A DNA stretch of 64,000 nt, from contig URHI01000002.1 of assembly GCA_900547565.1 (NCBI GenBank), positions 793-64,792 of the forward strand, given 5' to 3'. The number at the start of each line of letters is the position of its first letter. Position 1 is the stretch's first letter. Positions 5,728 to 42,661 of the stretch are shown one piece after another. This DNA comes from an uncultured Eubacteriales bacterium (lineage in GTDB: Bacteria > Bacillota > Clostridia > Oscillospirales > CAG-272). The position numbers and the translations under genes were made by a program. The notes below the pieces were generated by a model. The model was given only the letters and a program-made list of their open reading frames with translations. It had not been told where the DNA came from and ran no database searches.

Positions 5728-5733
5728 AGAGTA

Positions 5734-5762
5734 ATAATACCATATCGGCGGTGCGTTGTCAA
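5734..5762 (-). promoter_or_regulatory. Sigma-A type promoter for the SBP/permease operon
   Basis: Reverse strand: TTGACA (5762..5757), 17-nt spacer, TATTAT (5739..5734). Confidence 0.5.
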
Positions 5763-8238: not shown

Positions 8239-8745
8239 ATGGAGTACACAAAGAGAATGACCGCTGCCAGAGATAATTTCCTGGCCGGCTACAATTGCGC
8301 TCAGTCGGTACTGCTGGCTTTCGGAGATGTCACGGGCCTTGATGACGACACCGCGGCTCGGCTTGCATCCTCTTTCGGCGGAGGAATGGCACGTATGCGG
8401 GAGGTCTGCGGGGCAGTAAGCGGAATGTTCATGGCCGCAGGACTGATTTTCGGCTACGGAACTCCCGAGGTGGGCGACATAAAAGCAAGACACTATGCCT
8501 TTATCCGTTCGCTTGCGGACGAATTCAAGGCTATGTACGGCAGTATAATATGCCGAGAGCTGTTGGCAGGAATTGAAACCACACCGGGTGGAAACCCCGA
8601 AGCCCGCACGTCTGCATATTACAAAAAGCGCCCGTGCGCACAGTATATTGCCGCCTGCGCAGGCATACTCGAACGGCATCTGGACGAACATACCGGGCAG
8701 AGCCAACAAATTTTATATAAAACCGAGGTGAACAATAATGCTTAA
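8239..8745 (+). CDS. C_GCAxxG_C_C family (putative redox-active) protein
   Basis: 168 aa with the family cysteine pattern: GYNCAQSVLLAF…, EVCGAVSG, IICRELL, RPCAQYIAACAG. Confidence 0.85.
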   Translation: MEYTKRMTAARDNFLAGYNCAQSVLLAFGDVTGLDDDTAARLASSFGGGMARMREVCGAVSGMFMAAGLIFGYGTPEVGDIKARHYAFIRSLADEFKAMYGSIICRELLAGIETTPGGNPEARTSAYYKKRPCAQYIAACAGILERHLDEHTGQSQQILYKTEVNNNA

Positions 8746-21899: not shown

Positions 21900-21914
21900 T
21901 AACCGGAGAAAAAT

Positions 21915-23570
21915 ATGAAATTCTGCTTCAAAAATAATAATATGGGCAGTGAGAGCTATGAAGTTCTCTGCCACACCGCGGTTCGTGTCCTCTCTGTGCG
22001 CGGCTCAGAGCTGCTTGACGCACCGGACAGAGATGCCTTCACAGTCACACTGCGCAAGGACGCATCCTTTAAGGACGACCGCTTCACCGTAACACCCGCC
22101 GACGGCGGCGTTGAGCTTATCGGCGCAAACGATCTGGCACTCCACGCGGCTTTTGGAAGATTCATTCTCTCCTCGGGCTTTGACGGTCGCGGCGGCTTCT
22201 CGCCCGTTGACAAAGCCATTGACTTCACGCCCAGATCGCCCTTGCGCGGAATGTACTTTGCAACTCATTTTTACAATTTTTATCATGTAGCACCAATAGA
22301 GAAGGTATATGAGGTAATAGAGGACCTTGCACTGCGCGGATGCAATAACCTGCTCGTATGGTTCGATATGCACCACTTCAATTCCATGCAGGACGAAGGC
22401 GCACAGGTTCTTGTAAAGCGTCTGCGCGCCATGCTCGGATACGCAAATAAGATCGGCATACACGGCTCGCTGACAATGCTGTCAAACGAGGCATTTGCTT
22501 CGTCGCCGGTTGAGTTGCGCGCCGAATGGGAGGCGATCGGCGGCTATCACGCCAAACCCGATGACCACTTTCACCTCGAGATCTGTCCCAGTAAAAAGGG
22601 CGGAATCGAAGAGATCCTTCGCGAACGCCGCGAAATGCTTTCGTATTTCCGCGACCTCGATATTGCCTATATCTGCTACTGGCCCTATGACCAGGGCGGC
22701 TGCACCTGCATGCAATGCCAGCCCTGGGGCTCCAACGGATTTATCAAGCTGTTGCCGCATTTTCAGGAGCTCGTTGCCGAGATGATGCCGAACGCAAAGC
22801 TCATTCTCTCCACATGGTATTTTGACAAATTCATAGACGGGGAATGGGATTCATTTTACCCCAAGCTCACTGACGGCACTATCAGGGACGTTCCCTATAT
22901 CATGTCCTTCTTCTTCAACGGAGAAATGCCGAAATGCGTCGCCAAAGGGGGAGTTCCCAAGGGATATAAATTCATCGACTTCCCCGAGATAAGTATGTAC
23001 TCCTGCAGCCCCTGGGGCGGCTTCGGCGCGAGCGTGCTGTCACGCTTTCTCGACCGTACAAACAAAAAAACTGCCGGGCTCTACTCCGGCGGCTTCCCGT
23101 ATTCCGAGGGTATTTTCGAGGACATAAACAAGTTCATCGAGCTTACATGGTACTCAGGTCTTTACACCGATGCCGCAGATGCCGTCCGTGCGTACGTCCG
23201 CTCGGAATTCTGCGTTGAAGGAGAAGCACTTGATGAGTTAACCGACGCAATTATCCGCACCGAAACGGCTATAGCACGCGGGAAGGTATACGGCGGCGAG
23301 TCCAATCGCTATGAGATCGCAGACACAAGCGACGTTGAGTATGTATATCGGGTCCTCACAAAATACAACGCAAAGCTGCCCGAGGCTATCCGCAGCAGCT
23401 ATCGCTTCAGACTGTTTTATCTCCGTGCCGTCATCGACCGCGAGCTGGTAAGCTGTGATGGGTATCCGCTCCGTTCCGAAATATGCCAGGCGGCCATGCG
23501 TGAGGTAAACGAGATCTACTTTGCCACCGACGCCACAAAGCGTTGGGTCAAGGCTCCCGTGGGAGTATAA
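21915..23570 (+). CDS. Uncharacterised cytoplasmic glycoside-hydrolase-like protein, tandem paralog B (Cys4 motif)
   Basis: 551 aa, collinear with paralog A: LRGMYFATHFYNFYH, EICPSKKGG…YDQGGCTCMQCQPW, GFPYSEGIFEDINK. Confidence 0.55.
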   Translation: MKFCFKNNNMGSESYEVLCHTAVRVLSVRGSELLDAPDRDAFTVTLRKDASFKDDRFTVTPADGGVELIGANDLALHAAFGRFILSSGFDGRGGFSPVDKAIDFTPRSPLRGMYFATHFYNFYHVAPIEKVYEVIEDLALRGCNNLLVWFDMHHFNSMQDEGAQVLVKRLRAMLGYANKIGIHGSLTMLSNEAFASSPVELRAEWEAIGGYHAKPDDHFHLEICPSKKGGIEEILRERREMLSYFRDLDIAYICYWPYDQGGCTCMQCQPWGSNGFIKLLPHFQELVAEMMPNAKLILSTWYFDKFIDGEWDSFYPKLTDGTIRDVPYIMSFFFNGEMPKCVAKGGVPKGYKFIDFPEISMYSCSPWGGFGASVLSRFLDRTNKKTAGLYSGGFPYSEGIFEDINKFIELTWYSGLYTDAADAVRAYVRSEFCVEGEALDELTDAIIRTETAIARGKVYGGESNRYEIADTSDVEYVYRVLTKYNAKLPEAIRSSYRFRLFYLRAVIDRELVSCDGYPLRSEICQAAMREVNEIYFATDATKRWVKAPVGV

Positions 23571-24714: not shown

Positions 24715-26388
24715 ATGTCCCTGTTTAAAATTAATTCGGACGAAACATTGTATGTGGTCTACCCCGCAGCAATAACAAGTCATGAATTTGAACAGGCGGA
24801 GACAATAATGAACCGGATACGGGCGCTTGGCGGCGTCCGCCCGGTTCTGCTTTGCGACCGCAACAAATCCCCGGAAAACATACTTCCGGACAACGCTCCG
24901 GCTATTCTCGTCGGTAACACCATCGCCACTGAAAGCCGCCGGGTCCTGTCGGAGCTGACATACGGAGAGGCCGAGCTGCGCCTGGTCGGAAGACGGGTAG
25001 TTGTTGCCGCGCATACCGACGACCTGCTCCCTGCCCTGATATCGTCTCTGGCTGACAGCATGAAGCTCGACGGCGACACTCTCATCATGGATGTTGACAA
25101 GCGCCGCATCAAGGGAACAAGATTTCTGCACAGACTGCCGCTTTGTGACGGTGGGCGGCTGATCGCCTACCGCAAGAGCTGTGATGAATGTGATATGGTG
25201 GTCCTCGCGGATACCGATGAAAATATGTACCGAGCATATCTCAATAAGCTCGGTGGGATGTTCCACATGGAATGGGAGCGCGAGCTGCACGGAAATCTCT
25301 TTGCCGCCTTCTCAGATGACACCGTGGCGATACATGTATATTACACCCCTCACAATCATTTCATACGCGCGCTGATCGAGCCGGTCTCCAATTTATATGT
25401 TCAATGCAACGAGAGCTTCAGTACCGTCACGACCCCGCAGCTTACCTTTATGGGCCGTCGCTTCGGTGATAACTTCCGCTATCTCGGCAAAGATGCCGGG
25501 GCCGGTCAGATGAGCTACTGCATCAGACTTTCCGACGGTAGCTTTTTGGTATACGACGGAGGTCTTGCAACCGACGCTTTTGCCGACGCAATATATGATG
25601 TCATGTGCGACCAGGCTCCAGATCCCCAAAAGCTCGTGATCGCCGCCTGGGTAATCACACATTCCCACGCAGACCATATCGGCGGTTTTCTCAAATTCTC
25701 CGAGAAATATTCCGATAAGGTCAAGCTTGAGCGGCTTATGTTCAACTTTCCATCCATGCAGGACGCCGAGGCGTTCCGTGAGGCCTGGAACATTCGCCTG
25801 ACTAAGGAGGCACTCTACAACCGCTTCCCCGATGCAATTTTCTCCAAGCTGCACAGCGGCGATGTTGTCAAGGTCCGCGACGCCGAGATCGAAGTGCTTT
25901 ACACACACGAGGATTTCGTGATTCAGTACATTTCAATGCTGAATACTCATATTTATAACAACTGCTCGCTTGTCTCACGAATGACGCTTGGGGGAACAAA
26001 ATTCATGTTCATGGCAGATTCTCAGGAGGACGCCAACGCTATCATAGTGGCAATGTACGGCGATTATCTCAAAAGCGATATGCTGCAGGTCTGCCACCAC
26101 GGTGGGTGCGGGGGAACTGTTCCGCTTTATGAAGCCATCGACCCCGAAGTTGCAATTTTCAGCACTACCGACGCCCTTCTCCCCGAATATCTGTCTGTCA
26201 TTTACAACTATCATTTGGTATATGAACAGCACGTCCGCCAGATATTCAACTCAGCTGAAAACACCATAACCCTTCCCCTGCCCTACACTCCGGGCGAGTG
26301 CAACATTCCTCCATTCGAAGGCACTATCGTTGAAAAGCTTTCAAGCACAAAGGGATGCGTTATCAAAACCGCCAATAAGGAATCATAA
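24715..26388 (+). CDS. Cytoplasmic (no signal peptide) N-terminal domain plus MBL-fold metallo-hydrolase (paralog 3 of 3)
   Basis: ITHSHADHIGG, FMADSQED, VCHHGGCGG. Close paralog of 15690..17465. Confidence 0.8.
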   Translation: MSLFKINSDETLYVVYPAAITSHEFEQAETIMNRIRALGGVRPVLLCDRNKSPENILPDNAPAILVGNTIATESRRVLSELTYGEAELRLVGRRVVVAAHTDDLLPALISSLADSMKLDGDTLIMDVDKRRIKGTRFLHRLPLCDGGRLIAYRKSCDECDMVVLADTDENMYRAYLNKLGGMFHMEWERELHGNLFAAFSDDTVAIHVYYTPHNHFIRALIEPVSNLYVQCNESFSTVTTPQLTFMGRRFGDNFRYLGKDAGAGQMSYCIRLSDGSFLVYDGGLATDAFADAIYDVMCDQAPDPQKLVIAAWVITHSHADHIGGFLKFSEKYSDKVKLERLMFNFPSMQDAEAFREAWNIRLTKEALYNRFPDAIFSKLHSGDVVKVRDAEIEVLYTHEDFVIQYISMLNTHIYNNCSLVSRMTLGGTKFMFMADSQEDANAIIVAMYGDYLKSDMLQVCHHGGCGGTVPLYEAIDPEVAIFSTTDALLPEYLSVIYNYHLVYEQHVRQIFNSAENTITLPLPYTPGECNIPPFEGTIVEKLSSTKGCVIKTANKES

Positions 26389-32202: not shown

Positions 32203-32937
32203 ATGTCAATGTGGAATCCGTGGCATGGATGCCATCGGTACAGCGAAGGCTGTAAATATTGCTATATCCATAAGGGCGACGCTAAGCGCGGTGTCAACAC
32301 AGAAGAGATCGTAAAAACCGATAATTTTTACGCCCCCGTTGCCAAAACAAAAAAGGGCGAATACAAAATGAAGGGCGGGCAGACTTGTTATCTGTGCTTC
32401 TCTTCCGACTTTCTGCTGGAAGAAGCAGACAAATGGCGTGCGGAATGCTGGCAGATGATGCGAGAGCGGCAGGATATTAATTTTCTGTTTCTGACCAAAC
32501 GTATCGAGCGTTTTATGTCAGTTGTTCCTGATGATTGGGGAGACGGATATGACAACGTAACGGTATGTTGCACCGTGGAGAATCAGGACAGAGCCGATTT
32601 TCGTCTGCCCCTATTCAGCCAAATGCCTATCAAACATAAGTGCATTACGGCGCAGCCGCTTATCACGGATCTTGAGATCGAGACGTATCTTGACGGTATT
32701 GAGCTTGTCGTGGTCGGTGGAGAATCAGACCGGGATGCAAGAGTGCTTGATTATGCTTGGGTGCTCAATATCCGGGACCAGTGTGTGCGAAAGAATGTTT
32801 CGTTTGAGTTTCGTCAACTTGGCACGCACTTTCTCAAAGACGGTAAAATGTATACTGTAAATCCGTTCAACCTTTGCAAGCAGGCAAAGGAAGCGGGAAT
32901 CAATTATCAGCGGGTGTTATCATCAAAAAGTGAGTGA
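32203..32937 (+). CDS. DUF5131 / phage Gp37-Gp68 family protein (three-Cys motif)
   Basis: MSMWNPWHGCHRYSEGCKYCY is the family-defining N-terminus. 244 aa. Confidence 0.8.
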   Translation: MSMWNPWHGCHRYSEGCKYCYIHKGDAKRGVNTEEIVKTDNFYAPVAKTKKGEYKMKGGQTCYLCFSSDFLLEEADKWRAECWQMMRERQDINFLFLTKRIERFMSVVPDDWGDGYDNVTVCCTVENQDRADFRLPLFSQMPIKHKCITAQPLITDLEIETYLDGIELVVVGGESDRDARVLDYAWVLNIRDQCVRKNVSFEFRQLGTHFLKDGKMYTVNPFNLCKQAKEAGINYQRVLSSKSE

Positions 32938-32989: not shown

Positions 32990-34468
32990 CTATTTCTGAT
33001 AATCTCTTATTAAACGGACCGTTTTGTCCCGCATTTTTCTGTTACATAAGAATTTAATAAATCGTACCACCCAGAACACAGGTAAAAGCAACGGAGTATA
33101 AGTAAGGATATGATACCGCTCTTTCATAAGTCTGTACGGCGGGAATAATCGACTTAAAACATATTTTATTTTCCCCTGCTTCCGTATACCGTTGCTAACA
33201 CTGTTCTCAAATGAGCCGTAAGCTCCGCTTATATAAATGTAATGTAATATGTCCTTATCGACCGAGCCGGGATCATCGAATAAAACAGAAACCGTATCGG
33301 AAAGAAATTTGAAAAACTCATATATGCCCGCGTCTTTCATCAGGGCAACGATATATTTACTGTTATATTCAGGTTTGCTTTCAAAGTATCTTTTTATCAG
33401 ATAAAAATCCGCAAAGCTTCTCAGCCCGGCTCCCCCGTTATTATAATGTTTAAAAAAGTGAGCTGTATAATATGTGTAGAAATCCTCATCAGACATATGA
33501 TATGCGTATTCCTTGTTTTCGTCCCTTACGGCTCTTTCCCAGATATCCTTAAAAAATGAATTGCTTGCGTCCGTAAAAAGCGCTTTGTGCATCTCAAAAT
33601 TATATACCGGCTCCTTATAGTACGCATTATGTACCGATGATGGTTTTACGCTGTAATTACGCCCGGTCATTATACCGTTTACTTTTGCTTCATCTTTCTT
33701 TTGAATCAAAATGTCAATATCAGCGGCTTCACGAATAAAAGGGCTGTACAGAGCTTTAATTATAATGCCCTTGAGCGGCATATATGGTATATGCTGCTTT
33801 TCAAATTCTCCGGTTACCGTATCAAATTCCGAGCAAAGCAATAATTCGCGCTTTCTTGCATGATCGTTGTATCTCTGCCATTCCGCATATATTTCTTTCG
33901 GGATGTCGGATTTGTTGAGTACGGGAAAAACGGTAGCCGCAATGCGGTGATGCTTTGCTATTTGAAAAAGCTTTCTGTAATCAAGTGTGTCCGGCGCCTT
34001 CTGAGTGCGGGAGTGATCCAATACAGCCTTGACAAGAGAGATGAGGTACAAAAATTCGGAATAAACGGGCGGATCGTGTTGTTTTTCGGTAACGAGATTT
34101 CTTTTATTGCTTTTACGAGAGAAGTGTCTCATTGCCCTTTTATCCGTACAGGCATAGTATATGCCGTTTTTATATATGCCTTCTGCAACGGCAATGATCT
34201 GTTCCTTACGGACAAATTCGCCGGTTGTACAGTTATCACCACGTATATAATAACCGTCTTTATTTACACAAATAATACGGTGAAGCACAAGCGTTCCGTC
34301 TGCTCTGCGGAATAAAACAATGTCTTTTTTCTTAAGAGCAGCTACAACCGGAACCAAGCGTACCGAATCTTCATTTTCATTAAGAAGCGGCATCATGCTT
34401 GTGCCTTGTATACTGTGAACAGCAAAGCCGTTTTCTTTTATTACCTCATCGATCGATAAAATGCTCAT
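32990..34468 (-). CDS. Fusion protein: S24/S26-type peptidase domain plus uncharacterised nucleotidyltransferase (NTP_transf_5-like)
   Basis: The N-terminus HSIQGTSMMPLL…DIVLFRR…LVLHRII…IRGDNC is a signal-peptidase/LexA-fold Ser protease. The remaining ~370 aa are PF14907-like (…EAADIDILIQKKD…). Its start overlaps the pqqD-like stop (ATGA). Confidence 0.65.
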   Translation of the reverse strand: MSILSIDEVIKENGFAVHSIQGTSMMPLLNENEDSVRLVPVVAALKKKDIVLFRRADGTLVLHRIICVNKDGYYIRGDNCTTGEFVRKEQIIAVAEGIYKNGIYYACTDKRAMRHFSRKSNKRNLVTEKQHDPPVYSEFLYLISLVKAVLDHSRTQKAPDTLDYRKLFQIAKHHRIAATVFPVLNKSDIPKEIYAEWQRYNDHARKRELLLCSEFDTVTGEFEKQHIPYMPLKGIIIKALYSPFIREAADIDILIQKKDEAKVNGIMTGRNYSVKPSSVHNAYYKEPVYNFEMHKALFTDASNSFFKDIWERAVRDENKEYAYHMSDEDFYTYYTAHFFKHYNNGGAGLRSFADFYLIKRYFESKPEYNSKYIVALMKDAGIYEFFKFLSDTVSVLFDDPGSVDKDILHYIYISGAYGSFENSVSNGIRKQGKIKYVLSRLFPPYRLMKERYHILTYTPLLLPVFWVVRFIKFLCNRKMRDKTVRLIRDYQK

Positions 34469-34731
34469 TCTGACATCAATCCGGCAGATCGAAATTTTTC
34501 AAGGACCGACAGTACGGCATGCCGCGCCTGCTCGGGTGTTACTTCATATTTTTCAAGGAGCCTGTCAATCAAACTTTCTTCGGTTGTTTCCGACTGAAGA
34601 AGCTCCGCTATAAAAGCCGCCGTGCTGTTCATTTTGATCATTCCGGAAAACATTTGTCCGGCTTCTCCGGCGGCAACAATAATATGTTCATCGCCGTTTT
34701 TTGTAATAATGACACCGTCTTTAAACTTCAT
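34465..34731 (-). CDS. PqqD-family protein (RiPP recognition element, RRE)
   Basis: 88 aa. …MNSTAAFIAELLQSETTEESLIDRLLEKYEVTPEQARHAVLSVLEKFRSAGL… is a winged-helix PqqD pattern. 4-nt overlaps on both sides. Confidence 0.75.
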   Translation of the reverse strand: MKFKDGVIITKNGDEHIIVAAGEAGQMFSGMIKMNSTAAFIAELLQSETTEESLIDRLLEKYEVTPEQARHAVLSVLEKFRSAGLMSE

Positions 34732-35459
34732 ATTTTTTCTCCCGTCATGGTTTCATAGGATAGCCGTGCCGCCTCGGTTGATATATTGCAGCCAAGTGAA
34801 TATAACGGCACTTTATTTATCAATCTGATAATCGTTTCCACGGCTTTTTTACATTGCGCGGTTCCTTCCGGCTTCAAGGTCTGAGGATACGCCCATCTGA
34901 AGGCTTCGGAGGAGGTAACCATCTCGATGCTGTTATCACGGCTCTGGTGCAGAAAACAGATGCCGGCAATCTCAGCACTACCGTTATAACTCAGATGTTC
35001 TTTCCCGTCAAAAGGACTGCCGTATGCATACGGTATATCTCCCATAAATTTGATAAAAGGTTTATCTCCGTTCAGTATTTTGACCTTTTTGCCGAGAAGC
35101 TTGCACCATAAATCCGCATGCGTGCTTTTTCCCGTACCCGACGGCGCGGTAAACAGATATGCCTTTTCATCGCAGACAACGGCGCATGAATGGAATAGCA
35201 CAATACCGTAATCGGCGGCACGAGAGCAAAATTTCCTTAAAAACGCAAGAGATTCAAGATAATAATCCGGATATATTGCGTCGGATTTTTCTTTTTCGTA
35301 ATCTATATCACCGGTAGTGATGTCAATTTCGATATCAGTTGGGCAGGTGATCAGATAATCTGACAGAAATTTTGTCAGATTAGCATACTTATGAAACACG
35401 GACACCTTCAATCCGGCAAAGCAACAGTCGGTAATGTATTTTTGCATATCAATCCTCAT
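34728..35459 (-). CDS. HPr-kinase-related P-loop protein (putative peptide Ser/Thr kinase)
   Basis: VLFHSCAVVCDEKAYLFTAPSGTGKSTHADLW is an HprK C-terminal-domain-like P-loop. An alternative start at ATG 35447 has a better SD (GAGGA). Confidence 0.6.
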   Translation of the reverse strand: MRIDMQKYITDCCFAGLKVSVFHKYANLTKFLSDYLITCPTDIEIDITTGDIDYEKEKSDAIYPDYYLESLAFLRKFCSRAADYGIVLFHSCAVVCDEKAYLFTAPSGTGKSTHADLWCKLLGKKVKILNGDKPFIKFMGDIPYAYGSPFDGKEHLSYNGSAEIAGICFLHQSRDNSIEMVTSSEAFRWAYPQTLKPEGTAQCKKAVETIIRLINKVPLYSLGCNISTEAARLSYETMTGEKI

Positions 35460-35465
35460 TTTTTG

Positions 35466-35494
35466 AAACAGGGCGGGAATCTCCCGCCCTGTTT
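35466..35494 (-). promoter_or_regulatory. 13-bp GC-rich hairpin between the structural genes and the enzyme genes (attenuating or stabilising stem)
   Basis: aaacagggcggga-atc-tcccgccctgttt starts at the lipoprotein stop codon. It has no long U-tract on the coding strand, so it is unlikely to be a full terminator. Confidence 0.5.
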
Positions 35495-35904
35495 TAAAAA
35501 GGTATCTTCGGTAAATATACTTCGCTATTAACAGTTGTTGTTTCCGCCGGAACGGTGGTTTCCGCAGTCACGGGTGTTGTTTCCGGTGGAACTGTGGTCT
35601 CCGCAGTCACGGGTGTTGTTTCCGGTGGAACGGTGGCTTCTTCTGTCACAGCTGTTGTTTCCGCCGGAACGGTGGTCTCCGGTTGAGAAATTTCCCCGGT
35701 TGTTGACGTTGAATCAAAAGGTATTTTCGGCAATTCAACTTCACTGTTATCCGCGGTATATTCCGATACATCCGATGTCTCCTGCTGATCGCGTATTGAA
35801 TCATCGGATATATCATTGCCGGACTTGGAGCACGATGACACAAAAAGTATTGAAACGGCAACTGTTATTGCAAAAACGGTTATTTTAAATGGAGAATTTT
35901 TCAT
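35494..35904 (-). CDS. Repeat-containing lipoprotein that ends in a duplicated NSEV[EY]LPKIPF motif
   Basis: ATG 35904 (MKNSPFKITVFAITVAVSILFVSSCSK, with a lipobox). ETT(V/P)P-rich 13-aa repeats. The motif NSEVELPKIPF occurs at residues ~53-63 and NSEVYLPKIPF forms the exact C-terminus. Confidence 0.7.
   Translation of the reverse strand: MKNSPFKITVFAITVAVSILFVSSCSKSGNDISDDSIRDQQETSDVSEYTADNSEVELPKIPFDSTSTTGEISQPETTVPAETTAVTEEATVPPETTPVTAETTVPPETTPVTAETTVPAETTTVNSEVYLPKIPF
35533..35680 (-). repeat. 39-nt in-frame tandem repeats (two full copies plus two partial copies)
   Basis: ccgcagtcacgggtgttgtttccggtggaac[t/g]gtgg… at 35562..35600 and 35601..35639, with diverged flanking copies. Confidence 0.85.
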
Positions 35905-36053
35905 CAAAATTCATCAAAAACGCCGCTAAAACCGCCCAAACCGCTTGTGTAAATATCGGTAGAAACAATTTCAAACTCGATAATTTCTATCTCGGGTTGT
36001 ATAAATTGTTCTTTCTTGACGATATTATTATGTTCATTGTTCTTGTTTACCAT
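35904..36053 (-). CDS. Untracked 49-codon ORF: candidate RiPP-type precursor peptide
   Basis: Hand translation gives MVNKNNEHNNIVKKEQFIQPEIEIIEFEIVSTDIYTSGLGGFSGVFDEF. It starts 13 nt after the stop of the 943-aa gene. Its TGA overlaps the ATG of the lipoprotein gene (TGATG). It contains F-x2-P-x-I-x3-E-x5-T-x, resembling the Y-x2-P-x-L-x3-G-x5-T-x leader motif bound by PqqD-type RREs. The SD is weak. Confidence 0.4.
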   Translation of the reverse strand: MVNKNNEHNNIVKKEQFIQPEIEIIEFEIVSTDIYTSGLGGFSGVFDEF

Positions 36054-36066
36054 ATTATACCCTGCC

Positions 36067-38898
36067 TTATTTGTTGTTGAATTCTACGGCAGACACACCG
36101 TAATTATATGCAGCTCTTGCAAGCGCTTTCATAGTGGCATTTTCGCTGTTCTGCATCGCATATACATAAGAGTTAACACTATAGGTGACAATGGCACCTG
36201 CAACATCATCTGTGTAAATCGTTGCAGTGTAAACTGTATCAAATGCCGTTGCGTATATGCCATCGGTCATTACAGTATATTGGTTCTCACCGGCCGGGGT
36301 AAACGAAGTATAATATACTTCAGCCCCGTCGCCCGCTTTGATACCCACCTTGACATTGGCTGTATCGGCGGCGGTGAATCTGAATATCAACTTATTTACG
36401 CTATCAAACCAAAGGCTCATACCGGTGAATTTCACCGCGCCGTAATTGTTTGCAACCGTTTTGGCTGTAGACATAAGTTCCGAAAAATCGCTTCCGGTGA
36501 TGCCGTCGGATACAAGATCACCCGTGTTATGTCCAATGTAGGTCTGTGCCGCGCCGCCGTAAACGAGCAGGTCTTTGATCAGTTTAACCATAGCGGTGTA
36601 TTTTTCCTCGGAATATCCGAGTTCTTCCGCCGTCATGCCGCTCAGAGTTTCAAGATATGTTTTTACCGTATAAGTTTTGATGTTCAATACGGTGCCGCCT
36701 TTGATGATCTCAGCTGTTATCGTATCGCCGATACACTGCGGTGCAACACCCGTATAAACGAATTTATATGTAGAACCTTCGACCGGCGTTCCCGATACGG
36801 TCTTGCTGACGCCGTTCATAGTAAAGCGCATTTCCGCATCCTCATAGCCTTCGGGCAGTGTTGCGTAGTAATTGACTGTAATGTCTGTGCCGAGAGATAC
36901 GCTGACTTCGGAGAATGCTCCCGCAACGGATTCCAGTATAACGACATCGGAAAACTCCGTGATCTCAAACACAACATATGTGTTGCCGCTTCCGTCATAG
37001 ATCATGGAGAATGTTTTTTCGCCGTTTTGTGCTTCTTCGGAACTTTCATGATAGAAGATCTCCAGTGTTCCGTCCTGCTTTTCATGAATGATCTTATACG
37101 GGTTCAAGGAGCCGACAAACAGGGTAACCGTCATCGGAGAACCGTCGAAGTCCTCGTCCGAAAGCGGGAAGGATGTGTCGGTTCCGACAACGTTCATGGT
37201 GGGAGAAAGCGAAACTCTCATACTTCCGCCTTCGTTCTTGCTTTCGTCGGGAGAATATCCCTTGACAGTAACCGCAACATTCACATTCAGTTTTACATCG
37301 GTTGAGCCGGTAATGCGGCTGACATAACTGTCAATCGCACTTTGCTTCATTGCGGAGGTTACGCCGGTAACGGTGGTGCCTGCTTCTGCTTCCGCTCCGC
37401 TTTCAGCGTATTCGGTATAATCGGTCGTTGATTTTCCGTTGATCAGCTGATAACTGACATCGTTTACCGTACCGATGTCAACAAGGCGGTAAAGATATAC
37501 TTTACCCACAGTGCTATATGACTCATTGGAGGAATAGTCGCACATGGTGAATATTTTATCGCCGATTACTTCACCGTTATCTCTGCGGTAGGAGCGGAAG
37601 AAGTAATCCGGATCATATGCGGAGTTTATTTTCACGCTTCCGTCTTCGTTAAGACCGATATAATATCCGTATTTAGCCGAGCCGCTGCTGTATGTATCCC
37701 AATAAAATGAGCCTTCATAGTCGGGAGCAAGCTCCGCCTGAAGCTTATTGAATGAAGATATGATCCCGTATCTTATTCCGTTTCCCCATTCGGTGCAACC
37801 GGCGGCAAATCTCAGTTCAAAGTTTGCACATTTCTTAGCGCTTTGAAATGCAATCTTGCCGTCCGTCACGGTCACCGGTGCAGCCGGAAAATCACAACCG
37901 TACTGATTGGTGCCGACTGCCATGGCATAGCTGTCGGAAACAAGAATATATTCGCCGCCCGCGACGATCTCATCTTCCGAGGTGACAAGGGAATATACGG
38001 ATATATTTCTTCCGCAACTGTCGCACTTTTTGTCGCCGTCTGCGTCGTCGCATCCGAGTTTCGCCAGCGTATCTGCGCTTGTGTACGTTACACCAAATTC
38101 GTCTGCATAATAGGAAGTACAATCCGGGCAGAAGTAGTAGGCGTTTGTTCCGGTTTTGTTGCAGGAAGGTGACACCTCTGCATGGTATTCCATATTCGCA
38201 TGGTCACAGCATTCATACGTATAGATGCGATACGCGGTAACGAAGGTGTCGGTCGAAGTGAAATCTTCGTAGATTGGGCAGGTTGTAAAATACGGATCAT
38301 CACCGTTTTCCGGAATACGCAATGCGATGTCTGCATAATAACCGGAAATGTATGGATTTCCGCTTTCGTCCGTATAGAGGTCCCATTCCTTTGCGCCGCT
38401 TTCATCGGTAACTGTCAGTCCAAGCGACTCACCACGTTTCTTTTCCTCGTTATATACGACGGATTCACCTATATAGGCGTCCTCGCCTGAATAATTGATC
38501 CCCGGCAATTTCAGTTTTACATAATACGTACTGTCTGTCTGGTTGCGGACGACCGGCGCTACCTTGTCTGCCGGTACACGCAGATAATCATAAAAATCGC
38601 CTGCTTCGGCAGAACCGCCGGTCAGTCTCTCCGCAGGAATCGCCGAGAAGCCATACAGAGCCTCATTATATTCATTGCCCATGACATAAATATGCTCGAT
38701 TCCTTCTGAATCGGTATACGACGCGCTGATCAGCTCGTTTCTTTCACCCGGCCAGTATGCCCCTATCGTTTTTGAAAAACGCCTGTACACGGTTCCCGCT
38801 TCGGGTTCTGTTGCCGACGCGCCGAGCGGTAATAAAAGCAGCAACATTACGGTTGCCAGCAGCATTGAGATGACGCGCCTTGAAAACTTGTTTTTCAT
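36067..38898 (-). CDS. 943-aa secreted protein of unknown function
   Basis: Signal peptide …LLLLPLGASATEPEAG and a GGAGG SD. Contains a Cys-knuckle module (SPSCNKTGTNAYYFCPDC…CDDADGDKKCDSCG). I recognised no catalytic motif. Confidence 0.8.
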   Translation of the reverse strand: MKNKFSRRVISMLLATVMLLLLLPLGASATEPEAGTVYRRFSKTIGAYWPGERNELISASYTDSEGIEHIYVMGNEYNEALYGFSAIPAERLTGGSAEAGDFYDYLRVPADKVAPVVRNQTDSTYYVKLKLPGINYSGEDAYIGESVVYNEEKKRGESLGLTVTDESGAKEWDLYTDESGNPYISGYYADIALRIPENGDDPYFTTCPIYEDFTSTDTFVTAYRIYTYECCDHANMEYHAEVSPSCNKTGTNAYYFCPDCTSYYADEFGVTYTSADTLAKLGCDDADGDKKCDSCGRNISVYSLVTSEDEIVAGGEYILVSDSYAMAVGTNQYGCDFPAAPVTVTDGKIAFQSAKKCANFELRFAAGCTEWGNGIRYGIISSFNKLQAELAPDYEGSFYWDTYSSGSAKYGYYIGLNEDGSVKINSAYDPDYFFRSYRRDNGEVIGDKIFTMCDYSSNESYSTVGKVYLYRLVDIGTVNDVSYQLINGKSTTDYTEYAESGAEAEAGTTVTGVTSAMKQSAIDSYVSRITGSTDVKLNVNVAVTVKGYSPDESKNEGGSMRVSLSPTMNVVGTDTSFPLSDEDFDGSPMTVTLFVGSLNPYKIIHEKQDGTLEIFYHESSEEAQNGEKTFSMIYDGSGNTYVVFEITEFSDVVILESVAGAFSEVSVSLGTDITVNYYATLPEGYEDAEMRFTMNGVSKTVSGTPVEGSTYKFVYTGVAPQCIGDTITAEIIKGGTVLNIKTYTVKTYLETLSGMTAEELGYSEEKYTAMVKLIKDLLVYGGAAQTYIGHNTGDLVSDGITGSDFSELMSTAKTVANNYGAVKFTGMSLWFDSVNKLIFRFTAADTANVKVGIKAGDGAEVYYTSFTPAGENQYTVMTDGIYATAFDTVYTATIYTDDVAGAIVTYSVNSYVYAMQNSENATMKALARAAYNYGVSAVEFNNK

Positions 38899-39054: not shown

Positions 39055-39090
39055 TTATAAAAAAGCGCCCGGATCTTCATCCGGACGCGC
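39055..39090 (-). terminator. Intrinsic terminator after the response-regulator gene
   Basis: Reverse strand: gcgtccggat-gaag-atccgggcgc (one mismatch), followed by TTTTTT. Confidence 0.6.
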
Positions 39091-39107: not shown

Positions 39108-39731
39108 TCAAAAACCGTTGACGATCAGTTTTTTGCTGACCACACCCGCCGCAAGCTTTGTCTTTGAAGTGAACCCCGTTTTGGACAGCATACTGCTGAT
39201 ATGTGCTTTGACACCGTCGGTTGTTATATTGAGCTTTTCTGCCATTTGTTTATATGTCATACCCTCCACAAGCAATCGCAGTACGCGTATCTCGGCTTCG
39301 GAAAACGCATAACTGGTCGTATTTCCGAGCTTTACCTCCGGCGCTTTGTCCGGAAAGACCGATTCGCCTGCCATCGTCCGGTCGATCACGGTCATAAGCT
39401 CCTCGCAGCTGACATCCTTGAACCAGATGCTGTCTGCGCCGACTTGCTTCGCACGATCAATATAGCTGTAATCAAGCATGGAGGTCACAATAATTATCTT
39501 GATACCGGGATAATGTGCTTTTATCCTTTTCGCGGCTTCAAAGCCGCTCTCGTCGTTCTCCGTGCAGATATCCATCAGTATCAGATCAATAGAATGTACG
39601 GAGCAGCTCATTTCCGCAAGCCCTGCGTTGGCTATTGATAAAGCAAGCGAATACTTATTGCTTTGATTGATATAGTGTTCCATGCTCTCACGCGCCAGGC
39701 GCTGATCTTCCACGATCATAACTTTTATCAT
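39108..39731 (-). CDS. NarL/LuxR-family response regulator (REC plus HTH_LuxR)
   Basis: MIKVMIVEDQRL…DLILMDI… is the REC domain. The C-terminal …FSEAEIRVLRLLVEGMTYKQMAEKLNITTDGVKAHISSMLSK is the LuxR HTH. Confidence 0.9.
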   Translation of the reverse strand: MIKVMIVEDQRLARESMEHYINQSNKYSLALSIANAGLAEMSCSVHSIDLILMDICTENDESGFEAAKRIKAHYPGIKIIIVTSMLDYSYIDRAKQVGADSIWFKDVSCEELMTVIDRTMAGESVFPDKAPEVKLGNTTSYAFSEAEIRVLRLLVEGMTYKQMAEKLNITTDGVKAHISSMLSKTGFTSKTKLAAGVVSKKLIVNGF

Positions 39732-40699
39732 TGCAATTCCTCCGTGATCTCGGGTACCATAACCGTTAGTTCAAAGCGCGGGTAACTTGTGACTGTCATG
39801 CTACCGCCCGCTTTTTCGATACGCGACCGCAGAGTGGAAAGTCCACCACCCTCTACGATCTCACCGTCCGGCGCATTGCCGTTATTGCGGATGATCGCCG
39901 AGCAGAAACGGTCACAGCTCTTAAGCTTCACATATAGCTCGGTACTTTTCGCATGGCGCGCCGCATTTGTCACACATTCACGCATTGCGGTTATCAAATG
40001 ATAAGCCGAAGCCTTGTTTTGCGGCAGGTTGCCTTCCAAAATGATTCTGATCCCGATCTCATTCGCGGCGTCCTTAAGCTGTGTAAGCGCGTCACGGTCA
40101 TCGTCGCTTTCGCTGTCGTGACGAAGCAGATGAACCGCATGTTTCCATGCCGTCAAGTCCAGTTCATCGGTCGGATAATGTCCGGTCAGCAGCCTCCTTG
40201 CCGCAATTACACTTCGGCCGATGTCGTCGTGGATGCGCATTTTCATATTCAATACTTCTTCTTCGCGGATCAGCGCCGCTACGTTGGCGGAAAGCCGGCG
40301 TAAGCGTTCCCCGACTTGTTGCAGCTGACGGTTCTTTTGCTGCAATTCCGTCTTACGACGATACAACTCAGTTACATCTGATGCTGTAATCTCAGTATAA
40401 ATGTTTTTGTACTTATCGGTGATGGTTTTTTCATTGAATTGCCAGATATCGCCGCTGTCCATAACAAACAGCGTTCCTTCACGAACGGCATGCTGCGGTG
40501 TGCCGTGCATAACCTCGCGCAATTCATCAACCGCTTGCAGATCTCTCCCGGTCAACTCAAAAACAAGCCGGTACATTTGACGGTTACAAAGCGTTACTGC
40601 GCCGTTCTGATTGAAAAAGCAGATCCCGCTCGGAAGGTTATCAAAAGCTTGCTTAGTCATGCGTTTCAGTGAAGGTTGAATTATCCGAAGCGATCTCAT
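39728..40699 (-). CDS. Cytoplasmic PAS-containing sensor histidine kinase (HisKA_3 type)
   Basis: No TM segment. The PAS-like N-terminus is followed by a coiled coil. H-box MRIHDDIGRS. The HATPase_c region is …ECVTNAARHA…NNGNAP…GGGLSTLRSRIEKAGG. Confidence 0.85.
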   Translation of the reverse strand: MRSLRIIQPSLKRMTKQAFDNLPSGICFFNQNGAVTLCNRQMYRLVFELTGRDLQAVDELREVMHGTPQHAVREGTLFVMDSGDIWQFNEKTITDKYKNIYTEITASDVTELYRRKTELQQKNRQLQQVGERLRRLSANVAALIREEEVLNMKMRIHDDIGRSVIAARRLLTGHYPTDELDLTAWKHAVHLLRHDSESDDDRDALTQLKDAANEIGIRIILEGNLPQNKASAYHLITAMRECVTNAARHAKSTELYVKLKSCDRFCSAIIRNNGNAPDGEIVEGGGLSTLRSRIEKAGGSMTVTSYPRFELTVMVPEITEELQ

Positions 40700-42345
40700 T
40701 CCGATTCACCTCCGATATACGCAGTGATCTGCCATTCGCCGTCCTCATCCTGTGAAACCTTCATAAAGTCGGACGAAAGCCGGTTGACATCAGCATCAGC
40801 GTCCGTGTTCACCGTCATCTGAAGTCCCGCACGCTTTCTTGTAATCAAAACGATGATTGCCTGCATTTTATCAAGTGCGCACTCGACGATATTTTCAAAC
40901 ACATCATACAGCTTCATTACACATTCAGCCGGGACAGCTCCATCTATATCCGAGTGAAAGCCGCAGGAAATTCCGTACAACTCCATGTTATCAAGCGATT
41001 CCCTGAATGTCAGGGCGATCTCTCCGGCATCAAGCAGCGGTTCCTTATCCGCAAGAAGTATCAGGTTGCTTTTTCGTTTGAGATATGCGCCGATCACAAC
41101 CATTTTTCCGAGCAGCCTGCGCTTTTCGTCCTCACTTTCCGAAGCGTCAAACCGGTCTGTCAACTCAGTTAAAAGTTTGATCTGCCCCTCTGTCTGCTTC
41201 TGGATCAGGTCGTACAGTCTGTCCTGCTCGGCAACATGTGCTTCTTTGACCTTCAGGGCATATTCCTCGCGGATCAGATCGTTCTCGTCTGCAAGATATT
41301 CGTTTGTGTCGTGAAGCTCATCAAGAACCGCCAGCAGCTCCGAGACATTGTCTGTCCAGAGCACGTGCCCGCCGGAAATTTCCTTTCCGGATAACCTTAG
41401 CCCACCGTCGAGCAGAACACTTCCGTTTTCCGCCTGACGCAGAGTGTCCGGTGTAACATCCACGGCTACGGCAGATGACAATCGGGGGGTGTAATCGTTA
41501 TCGGTTACCCATACACCTGTTGAACATGCGGTCAGAAGTTCTGTGTAGTGTGTGTTTGACTGAATCAAACCACAGGCGATGAAGCTCTCGAAAATGATGA
41601 TGAACAGCACACAGTACGTTATGGTGATGTCGGCGGCATAATACAATACGGCCGGTATCTGCATCGCATATAATGCCGAATACACAATTGCTATCGCCAT
41701 CGGAATAACCGGCATCCACAGATACCGTTTACTCCTCGGGAGCCTGCATTTTACGAGCATGATGGCAAATGCCGCAAGCGTGTTCAGAACGATGTATCCG
41801 AAAACAATATAATAACCGAACCCGTAGCTGTACTGATCGTCCGTCCATACTGTCGAATTTGCGGGAAATTCAAAAACATGCATATGCAGATCATTTGTCA
41901 TTACCATTGCAAACAGTAAAACAGCCGGAACAAGTAACAGCAATGTTCGCTTAGGAAGCCGATAGAATTCCGGCTTTCCGAGTGAAAGTGCCGCAAATAC
42001 AGCGAGGACCGGGATGAACAAAAGCGGCAGATAGTACAAATACCACATATAGCGTACAACATTCAGGTTCGACTCAATATTATATTTCAAGGTTCTGAAT
42101 AATAGCCATAAAATCATTAAGACAGCGACAGAAGACAGGTATTTCCGCACCTCCACCTGAATGATGCGAGCACGCAAAGATATATACCATGCAGAAAACA
42201 GCGATAAATAAATGAAACTTCTTATGTATCCGCATACAGCGGGAGTGTATGCACAGATGTGCGGCAACCGGCACAGATATGCTACGATCACCAACAATGA
42301 AACTATGATAATATTGCGGGCAATATATTTATTCACCTTTATCAT
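40696..42345 (-). CDS. Polytopic membrane sensor-like protein with a degenerate kinase-like C-terminal domain
   Basis: Start moved to ATG 42345 (MIKVNKY…), 5 nt after GGAGGG. It has ~7-8 TM helices, then a coiled coil and an ATPase-lid-like tail (…VFENIVECALDKM…) with no clear H-box. Its stop overlaps the kinase start. Confidence 0.65.
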   Translation of the reverse strand: MIKVNKYIARNIIIVSLLVIVAYLCRLPHICAYTPAVCGYIRSFIYLSLFSAWYISLRARIIQVEVRKYLSSVAVLMILWLLFRTLKYNIESNLNVVRYMWYLYYLPLLFIPVLAVFAALSLGKPEFYRLPKRTLLLLVPAVLLFAMVMTNDLHMHVFEFPANSTVWTDDQYSYGFGYYIVFGYIVLNTLAAFAIMLVKCRLPRSKRYLWMPVIPMAIAIVYSALYAMQIPAVLYYAADITITYCVLFIIIFESFIACGLIQSNTHYTELLTACSTGVWVTDNDYTPRLSSAVAVDVTPDTLRQAENGSVLLDGGLRLSGKEISGGHVLWTDNVSELLAVLDELHDTNEYLADENDLIREEYALKVKEAHVAEQDRLYDLIQKQTEGQIKLLTELTDRFDASESEDEKRRLLGKMVVIGAYLKRKSNLILLADKEPLLDAGEIALTFRESLDNMELYGISCGFHSDIDGAVPAECVMKLYDVFENIVECALDKMQAIIVLITRKRAGLQMTVNTDADADVNRLSSDFMKVSQDEDGEWQITAYIGGESE

Positions 42346-42661
42346 ACATGCCCTCCGTAATAGCCGCAAAAATAAACTTTATTTTACCTCAAAGCAAAAA
42401 AACTTGCTTGAAAAGCATTTTTGCGAGACCGTCATTGCCGCAGGTGCGCAGAGTGCACACAGGGCGAAGCCCAAAGACTTGCGCATGAAGTCTTTCTGCG
42501 GGTATTATATCATAAAATCAGCATTATTTCAAGTTAAGGGCTTTAATTATAGGCAAACATAACACATCAGAACAAAAAATCAGGATCATGCCTCCGCACT
42601 CCGGCTGATTTTCCCTGATGTCGTACAGCCGTTCTGCCGTCACTGTGGCAGAATGCAGGGT

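Follow-up and report, generated by a model that had tools for sequence, protein, structure and literature searches.

Gene content of the operon

The window (the whole 64-kb stretch of DNA that was analyzed) contains on its minus strand, at 32990-36053, a genuine peptide-modification gene cluster. The products of its five co-directional genes are a 49-aa peptide, a lipoprotein with repeats, an HprK/ScmC-like P-loop protein, an 88-aa PqqD-type RRE, and a 492-aa fusion protein. All ORFs listed in an earlier sequence-only reading lie where it placed them on this strand, with 4-nt ATGA overlaps at 34728-34731 and 34465-34468; their translations contain the motifs APSGTGKST, GTSMMP, and RGDN, as well as LHRI. 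The block is AT-richer, as had been claimed (41.6% G+C vs. 48.6% for the window), and is among the lowest 3.3% of equal-sized windows, some of which are lower still. The operon extends past 36053 and is larger than first noted: the gene for a 943-aa secreted protein with a signal peptide (36067-38898, minus strand) also forms part of the conserved arrangement, stopping 13 nt short of the peptide gene. No LppD-type ABC exporter is encoded in the operon or elsewhere within the window.

The lipoprotein (136 aa; 35494-35904, minus strand) has a signal peptide with the lipobox FVSSC; its ORF spans 35494-35907, and the real start is the ATG at 35904, which overlaps the TGA of the peptide gene. The linker is acidic, repetitive, and rich in Thr, Pro, and Glu, and in the gene a 39-nt unit is repeated 3.7 times in tandem (83% matches). 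EVELPKIPF occurs internally and EVYLPKIPF forms the C-terminal tail; between strains, protein length varies via the linker (136 vs. 175 aa) while the tail is retained. Contrary to the earlier suggestion, the lipoprotein probably does not serve as an RRE-dependent substrate, since it carries a Sec/lipobox signal but lacks a leader motif. It looks like a membrane tether bearing a peptide-like C-terminal tail.

The gap separating the lipoprotein stop codon from the start of the kinase gene contains a hairpin with a perfect 13-bp stem and a 3-nt loop (35466-35494, minus strand; fold energy -25.9 kcal/mol, z = -7.0; 0 of 200 shuffles equally stable). Its function can only be suggested because no U-tract follows 3' of the stem; possibly it acts as a partial terminator or mRNA stabilizer that sets the precursor-to-enzyme ratio.

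Modification enzymes and precursor peptide

The linear polyphosphorylated peptide (LPP) family of RiPP pathways was first described by Popov et al. (Nat Commun 2026;17:6633, 20 May 2026; PMC13381572); hence the pathway is not "previously undescribed", as the sequence-only reading had it. BLAST references were the characterized lpp cluster or a relative 97% identical to that cluster. The LppK-like P-loop kinase (34728-35447, minus strand; Walker A APSGTGKST) is of the HprK/ScmC type; its ORF (34728-35459) could encode 243 aa, and the likely real start at ATG 35447 gives 239 aa, as in public gene calls. Family models match it only under threshold (ScmC, 0.0019; HprK_rel_A, 0.04), but its HprK-like identity is confirmed by BLAST against LppK of a Paenibacillus lpp cluster (33% identity, E=1e-10) and by jackhmmer seeded with LppK (2.9e-68) or with a lasso Hpr_kinase_C protein (1e-21); PF27840 is recorded in databases for the kinase and its homologues. 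Among 18 homologues, H86, G104, G106, K107, T109, H110, N126, D128, and K129 are invariant. The discrete LppB-like RRE (88 aa; 34465-34731, minus strand), which has ATGA overlaps on both sides, matches the PqqD family as proposed (PF05402, 60.1 bits vs. a cut-off of 23.4, E=2.7e-16) and, below threshold, lasso PqqD chaperone models; it shares 23% identity with LppB (BLAST E=5e-4).

The fusion protein (32990-34468, minus strand, 492 aa) had been described as an S24/S26 serine peptidase joined to a PF14907-like domain. The serine peptidase and PF14907 assignments stand; S24 does not, the Peptidase_S24 model matching only at E=0.19, under threshold, as does sigpep_I_arch at 3.4e-5. The N-domain (34126-34468), a predicted leader peptidase, is instead an LppS-like SipW/archaeal-type signal peptidase I (S26B) with predicted catalytic residues Ser24, His63, and Asp78, which align with S29/H68/D93 of LppS (BLAST 34% identity, E=6e-13); no transmembrane segment was found in this domain. 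Across 25 homologues, S24 is near-invariant and H63, G77, D78, and N79 are invariant. In the AlphaFold model of the fusion (pLDDT 87), the N-domain resembles the type I signal peptidases SpsB and SipA, and LexA, and the C-domain resembles the nucleotidyltransferases ANT(2'')-Ia, LnuA, and MenT1. The C-domain (32990-34050), LppN/PsmN-like, scores 139.6 bits against NTP_transf_5 (cut-off 31.2) and matches LppN by BLAST (22% identity, E=7e-7). It has the motifs PLKG (232-234) and D250-x-D252, and L232, K233, G234, D250, D252, E292, and H294 are invariant. Besides the window, about 20 loci have a peptidase::nucleotidyltransferase fusion, and P0017 has a kinase::peptidase::nucleotidyltransferase fusion; therefore, the three activities are argued to share one substrate.

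The 49-codon ORF (35904-36053, minus strand; MVNKNNEHNNIVKKEQFIQPEIEIIEFEIVSTDIYTSGLGGFSGVFDEF), which public assemblies also annotate as a gene, is the true LppA-like precursor, as had been supposed: jackhmmer retrieves 50 ORFs in 40 loci (46 distinct peptides), adjoining the same enzymes. A jackhmmer search seeded with LppA retrieves none of the clostridial precursors. The family has a conserved leader (consensus about Y-(E/x)-x-P-E-M-E-V-(I/V)-E-F-E-T-E-D-V-I-T-T-S) followed by a hypervariable core. In the alignment of the 46 precursors, F10 is present in 44, [ED]11 in 37, and S19 in 41, and a small residue is most frequent at position 12. By analogy with LppA Y-16/P-13, F-3/E-2/T-1, and S3, the RRE-binding motif would be F17-x-x-P20-x-I22, the cleavage motif is probably F27-E28-I29, and the phospho-acceptor is probably the conserved Ser37, the likeliest site because its counterpart in the alignment is a Ser that hardly varies within the family. 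At the proposed P1, the window peptide carries Ile instead of a small residue, and its F27 and Ser37 are one residue further apart. Related cores comprise 4-35 residues, are acidic, and often have (D/E)LPxΦP at the C-terminus; the shortest, of 4-8 residues, are in loci L042 and L078.

The cassette is homologous gene for gene, with conserved order, to Paenibacillus lppA-K-B-S-(D)-N, an order also seen in related clostridial loci with unfused genes, and we consider it a likely clostridial variant of the LPP pathway. Counted against this are the missing exporter, the differing leader, the P1 Ile and extra residue of the window peptide, and the classing in the source paper, where clostridial SpI homologues fall into minor network clusters and their RREs into "other", not LPP (PMC13381572).

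In the proposed pathway, the precursor would be made in the cytoplasm and F17-x-x-P20-x-I22 would dock as a beta-strand on the RRE. The kinase would then place one or more phosphates on a serine just past the leader, likeliest Ser37; in Paenibacillus, the kinase polyphosphorylates a core serine, giving a +80 Da series on Ser3 (PMC13381572). The soluble SipW-type domain, with the RRE presenting the substrate, would remove the leader, likeliest after F27-E28-I29, the counterpart of LppA F-3/E-2/T-1; LppS, which is SpI-like, cuts its leader with LppB help through S29/H68/D93 (PMC13381572). The fused PF14907 domain would next modify the phosphopeptide. Nucleotidylation, which the sequence-only reading had envisaged, is not supported: LppN deletion caused no change in the published lpp system (PMC13381572), and PsmN, the only characterized relative, adds hexoses to phosphate (phosphoserine), by analogy with which a sugar or other group may be added to the phosphate. 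The end product would be a short linear acidic peptide with the C-terminus ...GVFDEF. Docking, phosphorylation, and leader removal are shown as a pathway by homology to experiments; we infer the exact residues and the PF14907 step and, because the operon lacks an exporter, the exit of the peptide from the cell. The earlier reading of the locus as a peptide pathway that depends on an RRE and lacks a cyclase, and that employs an HprK-like kinase, a PF14907 nucleotidyltransferase, and a signal-peptidase-clan serine protease for leader removal, is borne out, and release of a phosphorylated linear peptide by a serine peptidase is proven chemistry in the homologous Paenibacillus lpp cluster (PMC13381572).

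Extracellular partners and alternative roles

The 943-aa protein has no Pfam/NCBIfam family match. Its conserved C-terminal ~300 aa (BIG-C; about 36070-36981, minus strand) end otherwise dissimilar proteins, and elsewhere BIG-C is joined to cohesin, LRR_5, or CBM9 domains. An AF2 model of BIG-C (pLDDT 81) has two beta-sandwiches plus helices, for which Foldseek returns only generic Ig/FnIII tandems. A (D/E)LPxΦP tail recurs at the C-termini of peptide cores, of lipoproteins tethered to the membrane, and of small dockerin proteins, and about 24 loci encode tethers with tails analogous to that of the window lipoprotein. The BIG-C protein and the tail-bearing lipoprotein are conserved partners whose role probably involves the peptide C-terminal tail outside the cell. 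The upstream BIG-C protein and the shared tail are both new relative to the searchable literature, and a secreted protein accompanied by a tether with a peptide-like tail may hint at the purpose of LPP-type peptides.

These neighbors raise the possibility, which we regard as unlikely but worth weighing, that the main job of the locus is cell-surface assembly rather than a diffusible natural product: (D/E)LPxΦP or ...DEF tails would be candidate BIG-C ligands, and the LPP enzymes would make a phospho-(glyco)-linked tail. In 18 of 30 loci, the gene immediately preceding the peptide gene encodes a BIG-C protein and stops 13-19 nt short of it, in some cases without nearby enzymes; no BIG-C was detected upstream in the other 12. 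The peptide is found in 22 of 23 BIG-C loci (Fisher p=4e-9) and secreted proteins with such tails are likewise associated with BIG-C (p=1e-5), although these counts are phylogenetically non-independent and contig-length dependent. Peptide and lipoprotein share one tail within L072 (NDLPFLPF) and within L003 (GDDGGFWLPPD), whereas in the window the peptide tail GVFDEF is unlike the LPKIPF of the lipoprotein. Retention of the lipoprotein tail as the linker changes length, the cohesin domains in other BIG-C proteins, and the location of Bacillus LPP clusters in capsule loci (PMC13381572) fit surface assembly; the generic fold match and an unrelated protein upstream of Paenibacillus lppA do not.

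It is improbable that the modified peptide is a quorum-sensing pheromone read by the adjacent two-component system. Genes for a 7TM sensor (40696-42369), a kinase (39728-40699), and a LuxR-type regulator (39108-39731) lie directly upstream on the same strand, and response regulators are near the cluster in about eight further loci; however, there is a strong terminator (39065-39088, 10 bp, T-tail) between the regulator and the 943-aa gene, the association is not kept in most loci, and the window lacks an exporter. Even less credible, and in our judgment very improbable, is accessory tailoring for a lasso pathway with its cyclase and B2 protease genes at another genomic site, yielding a phosphorylated lasso. 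Lasso clusters are known to include HprK-like kinases and PF14907 proteins as accessories, B2::nucleotidyltransferase fusions exist, LPP clusters of Bacilli often occur in genomes that also have lasso clusters (PMC13381572), and locus L037 has a downstream cyclase homologue. Yet that homologue is the only one in 89 related loci, none of which has a B2 protease, in agreement with the absence of both from the cassette as first noted, and no cyclase is present in the ten largest window ORFs scanned outside the operon and its immediate neighbors. Moreover, the cluster encodes its own leader peptidase, the 4-8-residue cores of L042 and L078 are too short for a lasso, and the window core has no Asp/Glu at positions 7-9 under either plausible cleavage site.

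Comparison with known systems

The uncharacterized, TIGRFAM-defined SynChlorMet (SCM) cassette and HPr-rel-A likewise place a P-loop HprK-related protein beside a PqqD-like protein, and the Pfam family of the window kinase takes its name from ScmC; however, scores are well under the equivalog cut-offs (17.6 vs. 125, 13 vs. 200, 19.8 vs. 35), and the operon lacks radical SAM/SPASM partners. SipW and archaeal-eukaryal-type signal peptidases I (S26B) share fold and Ser-His-Asp residues with the window peptidase, with sub-threshold TIGR02228 and SipW matches, whereas the window domain is cytoplasmic, without a membrane anchor, fused to a nucleotidyltransferase and, by homology, would be RRE-dependent and act on a leader, not on a Sec signal peptide. 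Phosphorylated lasso clusters of Firmicutes (paeninodin/pseudomycoidin type) also combine a PqqD B1 RRE, an HprK-like kinase acting on the linear precursor, and a PF14907 protein, and have protease::nucleotidyltransferase fusions (theirs with B2). They differ in having an Asn-synthetase-like cyclase and the transglutaminase-like B2, where the window has a serine signal-peptidase homologue; because the window peptide ends in Phe, its phospho-acceptor is not a C-terminal Ser, unlike theirs.

The LPP clusters of Paenibacillus alginolyticus and other Bacilli (lppA-K-B-S-D-N) share with the window a precursor, kinase, RRE, SipW-type peptidase, and PF14907 protein in the same order, all four enzymes being detectably homologous, and lack a macrolactam cyclase. 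Both precursors have an aromatic-x-x-P RRE motif, an F-E-T-like motif, a conserved Ser, and a variable C-terminus. The window cassette nevertheless diverges. Its host is an Oscillospiraceae-like gut organism of the Clostridia rather than a Bacillus relative; peptidase and nucleotidyltransferase form one polypeptide; and the MsbA-like exporter is missing, while 48 sister loci do have an LppD-type exporter. The clostridial leader consensus has F-E-T three residues nearer the Tyr and the Ser seven residues after it (eight in the window) vs. three in LPP, and the short, acidic, often (D/E)LPxΦP-ended cores contrast with Gly/Asn/Pro/Lys-rich LPP cores of about 45 residues. In the clostridial neighborhoods, secreted BIG-C proteins and tethers with tails take the place of capsule loci.

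Operon structure and enzyme content

Six co-directional genes are encoded on the minus strand: a 943-aa protein with a signal peptide (36067-38898); a 49-aa peptide (35904-36053), the start of which lies 13 nt past the stop of the 943-aa gene; a lipoprotein (35494-35904), the ATG of which overlaps the TGA of the peptide gene; a P-loop protein that represents the kinase (34728-35447); an 88-aa PqqD protein (34465-34731); and a 492-aa peptidase–nucleotidyltransferase fusion protein (32990-34468). The P-loop, PqqD, and fusion genes are linked by ATGA overlaps exactly as described in the sequence-only reading. That reading had bounded the unit at 32990-36053, which is too short: with the upstream 943-aa gene included, it reaches 38898. 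Read-through of the 943-aa gene into the peptide was rejected because the frames differ and 13 nt intervene. The same gene calls, including the 49-aa ORF, are found in public assemblies of the same organism. The block had also been called AT-rich, and its G+C content is indeed low (41.6% vs. 48.6% for the window), although not extreme. A perfect 13-bp hairpin (35466-35494, minus strand; -25.9 kcal/mol, z = -7), with a U-run on its upstream side and an A-run on its downstream side, occupies the gap separating the lipoprotein stop from the kinase start and may attenuate transcription into the enzyme genes.

A strong terminator (39065-39088) parts the 943-aa gene from a two-component system directly upstream (39108-42369, minus strand), which consists of a LuxR-type response regulator and a split sensor (a 557-aa HisKA_7TM membrane protein and a 323-aa PAS/HATPase protein). 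Convergent with the end of the fusion gene is a DUF5131 (phage Gp37/Gp68-like) protein (32203-32937, plus strand), a neighbor that is not common to homologous cassettes. Elsewhere, the window encodes three paralogue-sized proteins of 557-594 aa that carry a metallo-beta-lactamase domain at the C-terminus (8738-10522, 15690-17465, and 24715-26388) and two adjoining proteins of ~550 aa without a family match (20247-23570), with solute-binding proteins interspersed among them.

Two of the proposed enzyme identities were upheld by Pfam matches above threshold: the PqqD-type RRE (PF05402, 60.1 bits) and the nucleotidyltransferase (PF14907, NTP_transf_5, 139.6 bits). The peptidase and kinase domains fell under library thresholds, and other tests were therefore applied. 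The peptidase had been taken for an S24 enzyme; its Ser/His arrangement and best NCBIfam match (sigpep_I_arch) place it instead in clan S26B (SipW/Sec11 type). Across 25 aligned fusion homologues, Ser24 (GxSMxP) is almost invariant, and His63 (LHRI) and Gly77-Asp78-Asn79 are invariant, as are the nucleotidyltransferase motifs L232-K233-G234, D250, D252, E292, and H294. The AlphaFold model of the fusion protein (pLDDT 87) has two domains, of which the N-terminal matches SpsB, SipA, and LexA, and the C-terminal matches ANT(2'')-Ia, LnuA, MenT1, and CCA-adding enzymes. In the kinase family, the homologue alignment has an invariant Walker A motif plus further His, Asn, Asp, and Lys residues. The window kinase has PF27840 (ScmC) on record; the same Pfam family includes LppK, the kinase of the linear polyphosphorylated peptide (LPP) cluster lppA-K-B-S-D-N of Paenibacillus (PMC13381572). 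Queried with the PqqD protein by itself or with a profile of 18 kinase sequences, the PDB returned chance or P-loop matches only, which are thus uninformative on LppB or HprK structures. These enzymes are not mentioned in the RRE-Finder papers, and a full-text literature search for EDVITTS-like peptide motifs, ScmC, and PF27840 found nothing relevant.

Precursor peptides and related clostridial loci

One genome per species was scanned via the conserved nucleotidyltransferase motif, which recovered 512 tblastn-confirmed relatives; of these, the 80 top-ranking loci, all clostridial, were retained, further loci were added by exact-protein look-ups, and the window proteins were searched against all ORFs of the related loci (jackhmmer). 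The cassette is present in most of the best 80 of the 512 nucleotidyltransferase matches, with the closest relatives of the window cassette in Oscillospiraceae MAGs (e.g., Faecousia). The recurrent arrangement begins with the peptide gene, followed by those for the kinase, PqqD, a stand-alone peptidase (~145 aa), an ABC exporter (~565 aa, PF00664 + PF00005), and the nucleotidyltransferase; the peptidase–nucleotidyltransferase fusion of the window is a minority form. In one fusion homologue (P0017, 789 aa), kinase-like, peptidase, and nucleotidyltransferase domains occur in a single polypeptide. From these two-domain and three-domain fusions, we argue that the nucleotidyltransferase works on the same RRE-bound peptide.

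In one fused-type cluster (L001/L007; 7190-12316 in L001), a gene for an inorganic pyrophosphatase occupies the usual kinase position and overlaps the start of PqqD, and a TldD/PmbA pair lies downstream of the fusion gene; a precursor gene was not found near this cluster. Six other loci (L029, L033, L037, L067, L068, and L077) encode the same leader family with Cys-rich cores and an extra radical SAM gene, which suggests that a single leader/RRE system is used for different chemistries. In Ruminococcus-type loci, a family of 227-355-aa membrane proteins encoded downstream of the fusion (f7) was considered as a diverged kinase, and rejected.

The peptide family comprises 46 distinct members from 40 loci (jackhmmer over the ORFs of related loci). 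After the consensus Y-E-x-P-E-M-E-V-I-E-F-E-T-E-D-V-I-T-T-S, in which F10 (44/46), D14 (42/46), and S19 (41/46) are conserved, comes a hypervariable core of 4-35 residues; a conserved leader with a hypervariable core is the classic shape of a RiPP precursor. Because the clostridial cores are short and simple, the final modification should be easier to find by mass spectrometry.

The published LPP precursor consensus is an N-terminal YxxPxVLxHQxIxFETxxS with a variable C-terminus (PMC13381572). The window peptide shares the architecture of this leader (aromatic-xxP, F-[ED]-small, conserved Ser, and hypervariable core) and has F-x-x-P (F17 to P20, a putative RRE-docking stretch) and F-E-I at the positions of the LPP motifs, but spacing and consensus differ. 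In LppA, the Tyr is 13 residues ahead of F-E-T and the acceptor Ser is three residues past the cut, whereas the clostridial consensus places the Tyr 10 residues ahead of F-[ED]-[T/A/V/C] and a near-invariant Ser seven residues later. A jackhmmer search seeded with LppA recovered none of the clostridial peptides. F-3, E-2, and T-1 are important for cleavage in LppA (PMC13381572), and the F, acidic, and small residues at positions 10-12 of the clostridial consensus mirror this triad; thus, we infer cleavage after it, which in the window peptide would be after F27-E28-I29, a position close to Thr36/Ser37 being the less favored candidate. By analogy, EDVITTS would be the conserved N-terminus of the core, a counterpart of xQSWNKG in Bacillus cores, and on this reading Ser37 of the window peptide would be the likely phospho-acceptor.

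Secreted partners and a shared C-terminal tail

The lipoprotein had been put forward as a candidate substrate, but probably is not a substrate of the RRE, as it carries a Sec/lipobox signal and lacks the leader motif. It belongs to a set of secreted or membrane-anchored proteins (tether proteins) in which a long linker of low complexity is combined with a tail at the very C-terminus (e.g., ELPFVPF, ELPIIPV, LPKIPF, or LPPDEF). Many peptide cores and small dockerin proteins of these loci terminate in the same tails, which occur outside the window in L003, L005, L009, L024, L032, L036, L045, L056-L061, L067-L072, L075, L081, L082, and L087. Peptide and lipoprotein tails can be identical, as for NDLPFLPF in L072 and GDDGGFWLPPD in L003. 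The strict C-terminal motif [DE]LPx[IVLFM] was observed 47 times vs. ~15 expected, with nearly all occurrences in the peptide, tether, and dockerin gene classes. The linker of the lipoprotein includes a 39-nt repeat array (35536-35681 in the window; counterpart at 1448-1975 in the related locus L091) that differs in copy number between strains, giving a protein of 136 aa in the window and L092 and of 175 aa in L091, with anchor and tail unchanged. A variable linker between a constant anchor and tail fits a tether role.

The proteins encoded directly 5' of the peptide gene vary in length (360-1939 aa) and N-terminal domains, but share a C-terminal module of ~300 aa, here termed BIG-C; in the window, this is encoded at about 36070-36981 (minus strand), within the 943-aa gene at 36067-38898. 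The BIG-C protein ends just ahead of the peptide gene in 18 of the 30 loci with enough upstream sequence. Close BIG-C homologues include ~460-aa proteins that also carry cohesin, LRR_5, or CBM9 domains; an LppA-like peptide follows the gene by 13-19 nt in all three such loci examined (L087-L089), and in two of these (L088 and L089) the enzymes are not nearby. BIG-C, the peptide, and tail-bearing proteins co-occur (Fisher p 1e-5 to 4e-9), values that are indicative only because the loci are kin and many contigs are incomplete. The AlphaFold model of BIG-C (pLDDT 81) consists of two beta-sandwiches with helices after each, for which Foldseek returned generic tandem Ig/FnIII matches only (TM about 0.2). 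At the Paenibacillus lpp locus (L090), a 573-aa secreted protein without a Pfam match (4937-6658) ends 12 nt before lppA, and lay outside the published expression construct (PMC13381572); hhalign found no relationship between this protein and BIG-C (probability 0.2%).

BIG-C could conceivably recognize (D/E)LPxΦP-type tails, although we rate this as improbable. More broadly, the clostridial LPP-type peptides might be one arm of an unrecognized surface-display system with the tail as a portable ligand bound by BIG-C, a proposal that we put forward as doubtful. Under this scheme, the tail ((D/E)LPxΦP or ...DEF) would be carried by processed phosphopeptides, lipoproteins with long disordered tethers, and small dockerin proteins; BIG-C of large secreted proteins, some with cohesins, would bind it; and the kinase and nucleotidyltransferase would equip the peptide form with a phospho-linked anchor. 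If true, this would provide a biological role for the LPP family. The conserved BIG-C secreted proteins and tail-bearing tethers provide a specific handle by which function could be tested in abundant gut anaerobes.

Comparison with known peptide pathways

The kinase and RRE could suggest a lasso peptide of the paeninodin type, but the absence of a cyclase and B2 protease noted from the sequence alone held up: a cyclase homologue is present in one of 89 related loci (downstream in L037, not in the window) and B2 in none of the 89, and a scan of the ten largest ORFs of the window beyond the operon and its neighbors gave no Asn_synthase match. The cores are also unsuitable, as Asp/Glu occurs in the window core only in the C-terminal DEF, with none at ring-forming position 7-9, and in several family members the core is 4-8 residues long; the lasso reading was therefore rejected. 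A SynChlorMet cassette, defined by ScmC and ScmD equivalogs with the radical SAM/SPASM proteins ScmE and ScmF, was likewise rejected on model scores far under the cut-offs (TIGR04249, 17.6 vs. 125; TIGR04248, 18.9 vs. 100), and the window operon lacks a radical SAM gene. The HPr-rel-A system, another set built on an HprK-like and a PqqD-like protein, was rejected on the same grounds (HprK_rel_A, 13.0 vs. 200; PqqD_rel_X, 19.8 vs. 35; HprK_rel_B, 10.7 vs. 200).

The LPP family, which was defined in 2026 solely on clusters of Bacilli (Popov et al., Nat Commun 2026;17:6633; PMC13381572), is the close counterpart. In Bacilli, SipW-like "SpI" peptidases adjoin discrete RREs, HprK-like kinases, NTP transferases, and MsbA-like pumps. 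Expression of lppA-K-B-S-D-N in B. subtilis gave an LppK-dependent +80 Da series on core Ser3; leader cleavage after Thr-1 needed LppS (catalytic S29, H68, and D93) and the RRE LppB, and deletion of LppN had no effect (PMC13381572). Polyphosphorylation of the core Ser and RRE-dependent leader cleavage have been shown only for the Paenibacillus cluster, and the biological role was stated as unknown by the discoverers (PMC13381572).

Sequences of LppS, LppB, and LppA were taken from the Supplementary Data of PMC13381572, and LppK and LppN were compared via L090, the cluster of a 97%-identical relative. The window peptidase domain is 34% identical to LppS (E=6e-13), with S24/H63/D78 aligned with S29/H68/D93; the PqqD protein is 23% identical to LppB (E=5e-4); the kinase is 33% identical to LppK of L090 (E=1e-10; jackhmmer 2.9e-68); and the nucleotidyltransferase domain is 22% identical to LppN (E=7e-7). 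By sequence comparison, all four LPP enzymes have homologues in the window cassette. The cassette has a SipW-type Ser/His/Asp peptidase, here fused to the nucleotidyltransferase; a discrete PqqD RRE beside it, with its stop overlapping the fusion start codon; an HprK-like kinase; a PF14907 NTP transferase; and neither a macrolactam cyclase nor a B2 protease. An MsbA-like exporter (LppD) was not found in the 64-kb window by jackhmmer with LppD or the clostridial ABC protein, a search that recovered 56 ORFs in 48 loci, nor in Pfam scans of genes neighboring the operon. The window cassette differs further in its clostridial gut host (vs. Bacilli), its fused peptidase and nucleotidyltransferase, and its related but distinct leader. 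It thus has most of the defining LPP features, and the missing exporter and different leader consensus lead us to class it as an LPP variant.

The cassette observation was confirmed as a whole, and the biology proposed for it in the sequence-only reading was right in outline and corresponds to the LPP pathway; the S24 assignment, the extent of the unit, and the lipoprotein as substrate needed revision, and the description as a previously undescribed pathway is out of date, since LPP has been published (PMC13381572). In Supplementary Data 1 of that study, the few clostridial SpIs fall in minor network clusters with RREs listed as "other" and the precursor unassigned, so that the clostridial branch is uncharacterized; one of these, SCH01704.1, shares 36% identity with the peptidase domain of the window (E=7e-19). 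The best 80 of 512 matches show this divergent branch to be widely distributed among gut and rumen Clostridia; with its fusions and conserved extracellular partners, it provides a route to the final product and function of LPP peptides.
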